Source: Escherichia coli
GTDB lineage: Bacteria; Pseudomonadota; Gammaproteobacteria; Enterobacterales; Enterobacteriaceae
Direction: 5' to 3' (one strand)
Assembly (NCBI RefSeq): GCF_024700885.2
Contig: NZ_CP117016.1
Length of the DNA: 64,000 nucleotides
In this document: positions 5,950 to 7,670 of the stretch, one piece after another
Numbering within the stretch: the stretch's first letter is position 1
Layout: each line of letters starts with the position of its first letter
Notes under the pieces: model-generated
What the model was told of the DNA's origin: nothing
Database searches by the model: none
What the model saw: only the letters and a program-made list of their open reading frames with translations
Program-made: the position numbers and the translations under genes

Positions 5950-7029
5950 TCAGCAATGGAACTCCATTACGCGGTTAATGGCAAATTGCAGATTATTATT
6001 ATCAAACAGCCTCAACTTACGGCTGGCCCAGCGTTCGCCCGCAGGCCACTGGTGCAGCCCTTCCTTAACGGAATCCAGCGTTGGTTGACATTCGCCACGG
6101 CTCAGCAACCAGTCTACGGTTGCCAGCAACTCCAGACCAAACGGCGATTCAAAGCCGTCAATTAACTGGCTGACCTGCTCCAGCGCAGGTAGCCACTCTC
6201 TGGCTTCGTTGTTCAGATACGCATTAACGTGTTCTTTTTTCTGATCGTTAAACCAGATCACATCCAGCGGTTGGCTGTCCGGGATGCGTTTCTCGGCTTT
6301 AAGATAGGTGCCGTCCAGCGCATTAAGCAGATGGTTCAGATTGGGCGCATAGGGGCCATAATAGTGAGCTTCAAACCGCAGTTTGAGGATATCGTCCTGT
6401 TGATGCTGCTCAATGGCGCGTTGTAACAGCCAGGCCAGTTTCTGGATTTCCAGTAGGCTGCACTCCATCCCCAATACCCAGTAGCGACGCACCAGTTCAG
6501 CGATGGCGGCTCTGGCGGGAGTGAGCTTTTTTACGCCAGTGCTTTTGGCAACGTTCTGGTATTTTTCAGTCGGTTGGTAAATCAGGATATCAACGTCCTG
6601 AAGGTCGCCAAGGGCAGATTCAATCTGCGCCCGAACGTCCGGCCAGTTCAAACCACCGTTGCCTGCGCCCAGTGGTGGAATGGCGATGGACTGCACGTTC
6701 TCTTCAATCAAAAAGCGGCGTAAGTCCTGCAAGCCATCTTCAATCCACTCCATGCGGGAATCAGCGCGCCAGTGCTGTTTGGTCGGAAAATTAACAATCC
6801 AGCGCGGTCCCATCAGTTCCCCGGTTTCGGTAATGAACATTTTGCCGGTGATCACCTGCTTTTGTTTGCAGGCGAGGGCATAGACTTTCATATTTTCGGG
6901 GAAGCGCTCTTTAAACATCAACGCGATGCCTTTCCCCATGACACCGACGGTATTAACCGTATTCACCAGAGCTTCCACCGGTGCGTCCAGTAAATTGCCT
7001 TGTGTATATGTGATCATGAGAAGTACCAT
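5950..7029 (-). CDS. darG: DarG antitoxin (N-terminal macrodomain ADP-ribosyl hydrolase + C-terminal DarT-binding domain)
   Basis: 359 aa; N-terminus ...[20 protein letters not shown]...[16 protein letters not shown]...[13 protein letters not shown] matches the macrodomain fold; directly downstream of and overlapping darT; alternative start at 7017 gives an ATGA overlap with the darT stop. Confidence 0.8.
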
Positions 7030-7670
7030 CCAGCCCGTGTGTGAACGGACATTGTTAGATTACGCTGAAACAGCCATTGTTCTAATTGTAACCTGACCTC
7101 TTCGCTGTAACAAATTATCCCATCCAGCAGAGAGATCGGGCAGTGTTGCCAGATTAGCGCCTCTGCCTGATAGCGTTCAAATTTAGCCGGATCGTCTGGA
7201 TCGCGGCGAAAGTCCCGTGCCTGCAAAATGGGCCAGTCGATCTGGTCCAGACTATCCAGACTGGTGTAGTAGTTGGTCCAGTTATAGTAAGCATGGCTGT
7301 CGGTAAACACGAAGGGTACGTCGTGTGCTGCCACGTTTCGCAAGTTGCTGACCAGAATAACGATCTCCTCATTGGGGCGTTGCTTAATGCCGCCGCGCCC
7401 GCTGTGGATGTTCATCAGCATTGGCGAGAAGGGGGTAAAATAAAACGGCACATAGTCATGCAGTGTCCCGCCCGTTCCGACAGGTACCGGATGCCCGGCA
7501 CGCTTGCCGATCAGCTCCGGGTTGCCGATATTGATCCAGTTTTCCGCCTGCACCAGACTGTTGCCGCAGTGCAGCCCGTTATCCAGAATCCACGGGATAT
7601 TGTCCCGATGGACGATACGCCAGATCAGAGCTTTTTGCGGGTTGAGGCTGGCGCTGTAATCATAAGCCAT
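7014..7670 (-). CDS. darT: DarT toxin (DUF4433, ssDNA thymidine ADP-ribosyltransferase)
   Basis: 218 aa; [28 protein letters not shown] and [10 protein letters not shown] blocks align with the conserved DarT blocks recalled from Thermus DarT, including the putative catalytic Glu in the QAE motif. Confidence 0.8.

Follow-up and report, generated by a model that had tools for sequence, protein, structure and literature searches.

A DarT-DarG toxin-antitoxin pair inside an Escherichia coli type I restriction-modification operon, in a very probable copy of the RRDM defence island

The insertion of DarTG toxin-antitoxin (TA) genes into type I restriction-modification (R-M) operons was noted already in the 2016 paper that reported the discovery of DarTG (PMC5179494), and in 2025 a seven-gene island of this kind, RRDM, was published from enteropathogenic E. 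coli (EPEC) O127:H6 strain E2348/69 (Zhang et al., Nucleic Acids Res, PMC12255303). Carried whole on pBR322, the EPEC island gives DH5alpha a protection from several phages that reaches more than seven orders of magnitude; its hsdM gene is induced more than 15-fold upon phage infection, and its promoter is repressed by RptR through TAGCTA repeats (PMC12255303). Here we analyse a stretch of 64,000 nucleotides of E. coli DNA, referred to below as the window, whose minus-strand segment 2120..11800 is, with a probability that we put at about 0.95, a copy of the RRDM island with the gene order rptR-hsdM-hsdS-darT-darG-hsdR-M48. Over its whole 64 kb, the window shares 99.99% identity with the chromosome of E. 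coli strain MLI114, in which the two genes already bear the names darT and darG in RefSeq. The presence of DarTG in an R-M operon is thus a correct finding but an already known one: the genes have RefSeq names, the biochemistry of the proteins has been described and the island is published.

The EPEC pair was characterised by Lawarée et al. (Cell Rep 2020, PMC7003065). EPEC DarT ADP-ribosylates thymidine in single-stranded DNA at TTT/TCT, blocks replication and induces the SOS response, and RecF-dependent recombination and nucleotide excision repair deal with the lesions; E170A inactivates the toxin and G49D is an attenuated allele. EPEC DarG reverses the ADP-ribosylation through its macrodomain and also binds and sequesters DarT through its C-terminal domain (PMC7003065). 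The DarTG proteins of Thermus aquaticus, Thermus sp. 2.9 and Mycobacterium tuberculosis (Jankevicius et al. 2016, PMC5179494; PDB entries 7omv, 5m31, 5m3i and 7yk3) are distant orthologues, which have the same domain architecture and catalytic residues as the window pair; the target motif is TNTC in Thermus, whereas it is TTT/TCT in EPEC (PMC7003065). DarT1-NADAR systems (DarTG1) are likewise phage-defence TA systems with a homologous DarT toxin fold, but the literature describes DarT1 as a guanine-modifying enzyme that is paired with a NADAR antitoxin.

The pair in the window consists of two overlapping genes:

7014..7670 (-): darT, 218 aa, ATG start; predicted DNA ADP-ribosyltransferase toxin, DarT2 type
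5950..7017 (-): darG, 355 aa; predicted DNA ADP-ribosyl glycohydrolase antitoxin, with a macrodomain at about residues 1-150 and a C-terminal DarT-binding domain at about 183-351

Open reading frames (ORFs) were taken from a program-made list, and their products were compared with PADLOC, Pfam and NCBIfam equivalog profiles and with PDB sequences. The list has minus-strand ORFs at 7014..7670 (218 aa, ATG) and 5950..7029 (359 aa, ATG), which bears out the coordinates of the initial annotation of this DNA. That annotation read the products as DarT and as DarG with an N-terminal macrodomain, and proposed DarT/DUF4433 and Macro models as the profiles to search; both proteins match significantly, and both identifications hold. 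The 218-aa protein covers the whole of Pfam PF14487 (profile 1-201/201, E=3.4e-53), matches PADLOC DarT (E=1.9e-74) and reaches 262.6 bits with the NCBIfam equivalog NF048013 'toxin DarT', for which the curated cut-off is 150 (residues 16-217 on profile 1-204/204); among PDB sequences it matches 7omv (1.6e-26) and 7yk3 (2.1e-15). The downstream protein matches Pfam Macro (E=4.7e-21, with a weak SocA_Panacea match in its C-terminal half), PADLOC DarG (E=1.5e-127) and the equivalog NF048014 'antitoxin DarG' (451.2 bits, cut-off 250, residues 2-349 covered). Its macrodomain matches the DarG structures 5m31 (4.2e-55) and 5m3i (1.5e-53), and residues 183-351 match 7yk3_B, the C-terminal chain of M. 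tuberculosis DarG that was co-crystallised with DarT (E=5.4e-13). The PADLOC and Pfam E-values rule out a chance resemblance for both proteins, the sequence holds nothing that contradicts the assignment and, judged from these matches, 5950..7670 is a genuine DarT toxin/DarG antitoxin pair inside an E. coli type I R-M operon. Because the antitoxin next to it is a macrodomain DarG and not a NADAR protein, the toxin is classed as DarT2, of the thymidine-modifying DarTG2 class, and not as DarT1-NADAR.

The DarT signature blocks claimed earlier are all in the 218-aa translation (residues 67-85, PFVFTDSHA at 119-127 and QAEALIW at 168-174) and line up with their counterparts in Thermus DarT (7omv). 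The glutamate of QAEALIW, given as the putative catalytic residue, is E170; it lies within YQAEALI and, in the alignment with 7omv, stands opposite the alanine that the E160A mutation introduced into that crystallised Thermus construct. The E160A form of Taq DarT is non-toxic (PMC5179494). Position 49 carries the wild-type glycine, and the window pair and the EPEC pair are essentially the same proteins, with the same catalytic E170 and the same DarG catalytic lysine. DarT is identical to EPEC O127:H6 DarT at 215 of 218 residues (98.6%), the differences being Q97R, D139N and A213S. When Thermus DarT is brought into the comparison, the window residue at position 97 matches it and the EPEC residue does not, D139 is aligned to an acidic residue, and position 213 is not conserved. 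Inactivating changes were looked for in the pair and none was found: both ORFs are intact and the three DarT differences all lie outside the catalytic blocks. The exact window DarT sequence occurs on at least 1000 contigs. By analogy with the 98.6%-identical EPEC protein, the window DarT is predicted to be toxic and to ADP-ribosylate thymidine in an NAD+-dependent manner.

DarG is identical to EPEC O127:H6 DarG at 355 of 355 residues. Its exact sequence is named DARG_ECO27 in the protein collection, and the accession that it has in the MLI114 record, WP_000634203.1, is the one given for DarG of EPEC E2348/69 (PMC12255303). The residues probed in TaqDarG, N22, K29, K80, H82, W83 and G119 (PMC5179494), are all present at Taq numbering, as in a TARG1-like macrodomain with a catalytic K80 and an ADP-ribose pocket. 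Lawarée et al. number DarG from a start 26 residues further downstream, and their catalytic K54 (PMC7003065) is K80 in the 355-aa form.

Two starts can be considered for darG. The TGA that ends darT (7016..7014) and an in-frame ATG (7017..7015) together form a 4-nt ATGA, within ...TTCTCATGATCACA..., an overlap that the initial annotation had pointed out and that is seen in the sequence. The same annotation gave DarG 359 aa; the longest ORF, starting at ATG 7029, does have this length. We rejected the 7029 start, however, because RefSeq places the start at the ATG of the overlap, the match to the PADLOC DarG profile starts at residue 5 of the longer form, and the 355-aa form aligns without gaps, Met1 to Met1, with the DarG macrodomains of T. 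aquaticus and M. tuberculosis. The true start is almost certainly the ATG of the ATGA overlap, giving 355 aa, and darG translation is probably coupled to that of darT through this overlap. A second macrodomain protein in the window, unrelated to the island, is the core-genome O-acetyl-ADP-ribose deacetylase encoded by ymdB at 34726..35259 (+) in the MLI114 annotation; DarG matches the YmdB-type model NF001666 weakly (30 bits against a cut-off of 246).

The ORF list, RefSeq and the junction spacing agree in placing darTG between hsdS and hsdR, where the initial annotation had put it, in a single tightly packed minus-strand gene string. The description of darTG as lying within a type I R-M operon stands, and the gene list is extended to seven by rptR and the M48 peptidase gene. 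The other features of the island are:

11767..11800 (-): island promoter and operator, read in the sequence and aligned to EPEC O127:H6
11495..11734 (-): rptR, 79-aa helix-turn-helix (HTH) repressor, first gene of the island; shares 76 of 79 residues with EPEC RptR, for which there is a crystal structure (PDB 9r2z, E=5.7e-47)
rptR/hsdM junction: 36-nt gap
9017..11455 (-): hsdM, type I methyltransferase subunit, 812 aa; PADLOC MTase_I, E=0, full length
hsdM/hsdS junction: 1-nt overlap
7683..9017 (-): hsdS, specificity subunit, 444 aa from ATG 9017; PADLOC Specificity_I, 3e-131
hsdS/darT junction: 12-nt gap
darT/darG junction: 4-nt overlap (ATGA)
darG/hsdR junction: 18-nt gap
2836..5931 (-): hsdR, type I restriction endonuclease/translocase subunit, 1031 aa, TTG start with an AAGGAG Shine-Dalgarno sequence; PADLOC REase_I, E=0, and RefSeq
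hsdR/M48 junction: 1-nt overlap, with the M48 start on the hsdR stop
2120..2836 (-): M48/YgjP-like Zn-metallopeptidase gene, 238 aa, last gene of the island; RefSeq 'M48 family metallopeptidase'

HsdM, HsdS and HsdR are all present, intact and full-length in one locus according to PADLOC and RefSeq, and form a complete type I R-M system. RptR and the M48 protein have no match in PADLOC or NCBIfam. The identity of RptR rests on the PDB match, on the Pfam family HTH_73 recorded on its EPEC homologue and on the RefSeq name ('HTH-like domain-containing protein'); that of the M48 protein rests on the Pfam family YgjP-like recorded on a homologue and on the RefSeq name.

For the comparison with EPEC we used an E. 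coli O127:H6 genome found through the DarG protein. The same seven genes occur there in the same order and orientation on one strand, and the same order is found in one unrelated assembled contig. Protein identities to the EPEC island are 100% for DarG, 98.6% for DarT, 99.6% for HsdR, 237/238 (99.6%) for the M48 protein, 97.7% for HsdM and 76/79 (96.2%) for RptR, and both islands have insertion sequence (IS) remnants as flanks. In the window, however, the island lies within a tRNA-Ser(GGA) island, beside Ag43 and GTPase genes.

The promoter is shared as well. It has a -35 box TTGAAC at 11800..11795, a 14-bp spacer and a -10 box AGCTAATTT at 11780..11772, which are the boxes of the EPEC promoter. 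Two TAGCTA palindromes, at 11781..11776 and 11772..11767 with a 9-bp spacing, overlap the -10 box and are predicted RptR sites. The EPEC operator has three such repeats, a clean difference of one 9-bp unit. Two RptR sites suffice for repression, and the third was proposed to raise sensitivity (PMC12255303). The two-repeat form of the operator is also found in an independent assembled contig.

We scanned the string (1900..12100) for internal signals and found 13 promoter-like sites, against 11.4 +/- 4.0 expected by shuffle, and 14 terminator-like sites, against 11.6 +/- 2.8. Since the gene junctions are tight, the internal signals are at shuffle level and the published promoter is conserved, the seven genes would form a single RptR-controlled operon. 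An independent darTG transcription unit finds no support in these internal signals, although a separate unit is still conceivable.

A further departure from the EPEC island concerns hsdS. The window HsdS is 45.5% identical to EPEC HsdS, both target-recognition domains being replaced, whereas every other island protein is 96-100% identical. At the nucleotide level, homology to the EPEC hsdS is lost from 8911 to 7824, except for a central segment (8469..8259) that keeps 86% identity. The G+C content at third codon positions (GC3) is 0.34 in hsdS, against 0.64 in darT, 0.61 in darG, 0.63 in hsdM and 0.61 in hsdR. We considered whether darTG might be a compositionally recent insertion and rejected this idea: the GC3 of darT and darG is indistinguishable from that of hsdM and hsdR, and the outlier is hsdS. 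In an island whose other parts are fixed, this amounts to an exchange of specificity. Because both target-recognition domains differ, the window HsdS is expected to have a recognition sequence different from that of EPEC, and the window island would therefore restrict a different range of phages from that of the EPEC island.

How widespread is this arrangement in the species? The darTG pair is present in 248 of 5426 complete E. coli genomes (about 4.6%). It is found in 249 E. coli records, 243 of which are at least 99% identical, a near-uniformity that indicates purifying selection. There are also 249 records with an hsdR of this lineage at 95% identity or more, the other hsdR matches being distant (60-80%) or short. 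Because these record numbers are equal, darTG and this hsdR lineage are judged to be co-inherited. An 'empty site', that is, this hsdR lineage without darTG, was sought in complete E. coli genomes and none was evident, the counts being 249 and 249. In strain STEC2017-197 (NZ_CP075663.1, 1216167..1217656), darTG is matched in two pieces, with 88% coverage and 97.6% identity, and darT is annotated as 'DarT family protein'; this may be a natural disruption of the toxin with darG retained.

The larger genomic island around the RRDM copy takes in window positions 1..26555, is bounded by the tRNA-Ser(GGA) gene (26468..26555), and is IS-rich and mobile. In the MLI114 annotation it contains an Ag43/Cah autotransporter gene at about 15063..17984, a YeeP-like GTPase gene at 13854..14765, a CbtA/YeeU TA pair and an 'antirestriction protein' gene, so that one and the same genomic island combines a type I R-M system with an antirestriction gene. 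It also holds IS3, IS600 and IS5 remnants and a truncated autotransporter gene (213..1640). An AT-rich patch (GC 0.35-0.39) some 0.9 kb upstream of the island promoter holds, on the other strand, a 314-aa ORF (12733..13677 (+)) that RefSeq calls a 'hypothetical protein'. NCBIfam and PADLOC give no significant match for its product, and Pfam gives a GIY-YIG match below threshold (E=0.017, residues 22-62); the defence island may have an uncharacterised gene for a nuclease-like protein as its neighbour. Rfam matches at gathering level, all of them ordinary E. coli features, comprise an IS102 RNA at 14883..15119 (+), just upstream of the Ag43 gene, and three others elsewhere in the window: the small RNAs (sRNAs) ES056 at 32155..32246 (-) and ES036 (CssrF) at 42344..42386 (-), and the PyrC leader at 51516..51565 (-).

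How would such an island work? A single RptR-repressed promoter upstream of rptR would drive darTG together with the type I R-M genes. During phage infection, the restriction complex would attack unmethylated DNA as a first layer. DarT would use NAD+ to ADP-ribosylate thymidine in single-stranded DNA (at TTT/TCT for the EPEC enzyme) and so stall replication, while the DarG macrodomain, with its catalytic K80, would strip the ADP-ribose and the DarG C-terminal domain would bind and sequester DarT. Upon loss of DarG control, free DarT would ADP-ribosylate replicating (phage) DNA and act as a second-layer back-up. We infer this layered division of labour, with restriction first and DarT behind it. 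The combination of restriction and a DNA-ADP-ribosylating defence in one operon, which the initial annotation had proposed, is the literature description of the near-identical EPEC island (PMC12255303, PMC7003065, PMC5179494). The enzymatic activities, the toxicity and its rescue, and phage protection are carried over here from the published work on those near-identical EPEC proteins and island, and phage resistance conferred by the window island is likewise expected by analogy with the EPEC copy.

The transfer of these properties has its limits. The DarT that was characterised differs from the window DarT at the three positions given above, and phage protection was demonstrated for the intact EPEC island as a whole only (PMC12255303). 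Co-transcription of darTG and the hsd genes in this strain is deduced from gene spacing, and promoter-like sites, at chance level, lie in the 3' end of hsdS (8035..7843). With two RptR sites in place of three, regulation may also differ quantitatively from that of EPEC.

Is phage defence the main role of DarTG in this setting? The pair could instead be mainly an addiction module, stabilising the R-M operon or the genomic island against loss, with a negligible share in native phage defence. This role was raised explicitly for DarTG in type I R-M operons by Jankevicius et al. 2016 (PMC5179494), and both the nearly invariable co-inheritance of darTG with its hsdR lineage in E. coli (249 records each) and the location in a mobile, IS-rich tRNA-Ser island would agree with it. 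However, DarTG1 and DarTG2 alone protect E. coli from phage, according to the account of LeRoux 2022 given in PMC12255303. Addiction and defence, moreover, are not mutually exclusive, and type I R-M systems already have some post-segregational killing potential of their own. We regard a predominantly stabilising role as unlikely.

A mechanistic crosstalk between the embedded genes and their host operon can also be envisaged: DNA translocation or cleavage by HsdR, or failed restriction, would yield the single-stranded substrate or the trigger for DarT, or the M48 peptidase would degrade DarG or RptR upon infection. That methylation and ADP-ribosylation might influence one another was suggested in 2016 (PMC5179494). 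The conserved gene order, found in the O127:H6 genome and in an unrelated contig, the overlapping or nearly abutting reading frames and the single regulated promoter would fit such a partnership. The M48 gene has no assigned role in the published island and is a candidate regulator or protease of island components. On the other hand, other genomes have unrelated gene pairs between hsdS and hsdR; this speaks for a hotspot that tolerates insertions more than for a dedicated partnership. In M. tuberculosis, darTG adjoins dnaB. DarTG also works outside R-M contexts, the M. tuberculosis pair being studied as a stand-alone module (PMC7689832). On balance we find such crosstalk quite improbable.

It is scarcely credible that the pair is an inactive remnant, with a toxin weakened by its three substitutions relative to EPEC and kept by linkage only: the three differences and at least one E. 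coli genome with a disrupted darT region (STEC2017-197, matched in two pieces at 88% coverage) would point that way, but both ORFs are intact, all functional residues tested in the literature are present, the substitutions avoid the catalytic blocks (the residue at 97 being that of Thermus DarT and position 213 not being conserved), and the sequences are as widespread and uniform as described above, with the exact DarT on at least 1000 contigs and 243 of 249 E. coli records at 99% identity or more.

We thus retain the reading of this locus as a copy of the RRDM island, with an intact DarTG pair and a different HsdS allele. The darTG finding in itself adds no new biology. Should the embedded darTG and M48 genes form a functional circuit, in which restriction, its failure or the M48 peptidase controls whether DarT is freed from DarG, or the promoter from RptR, the island would be one integrated two-stage system and not two co-located ones; we consider this a long shot. 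As it stands, the locus offers a textbook case of nested defence, with a DNA-ADP-ribosylating TA module placed inside a first-line restriction system. A comparison of natural alleles, here with a new HsdS specificity and a two-repeat operator, could show how the number of RptR sites affects expression and, likewise, what DarTG contributes after a phage escapes restriction.

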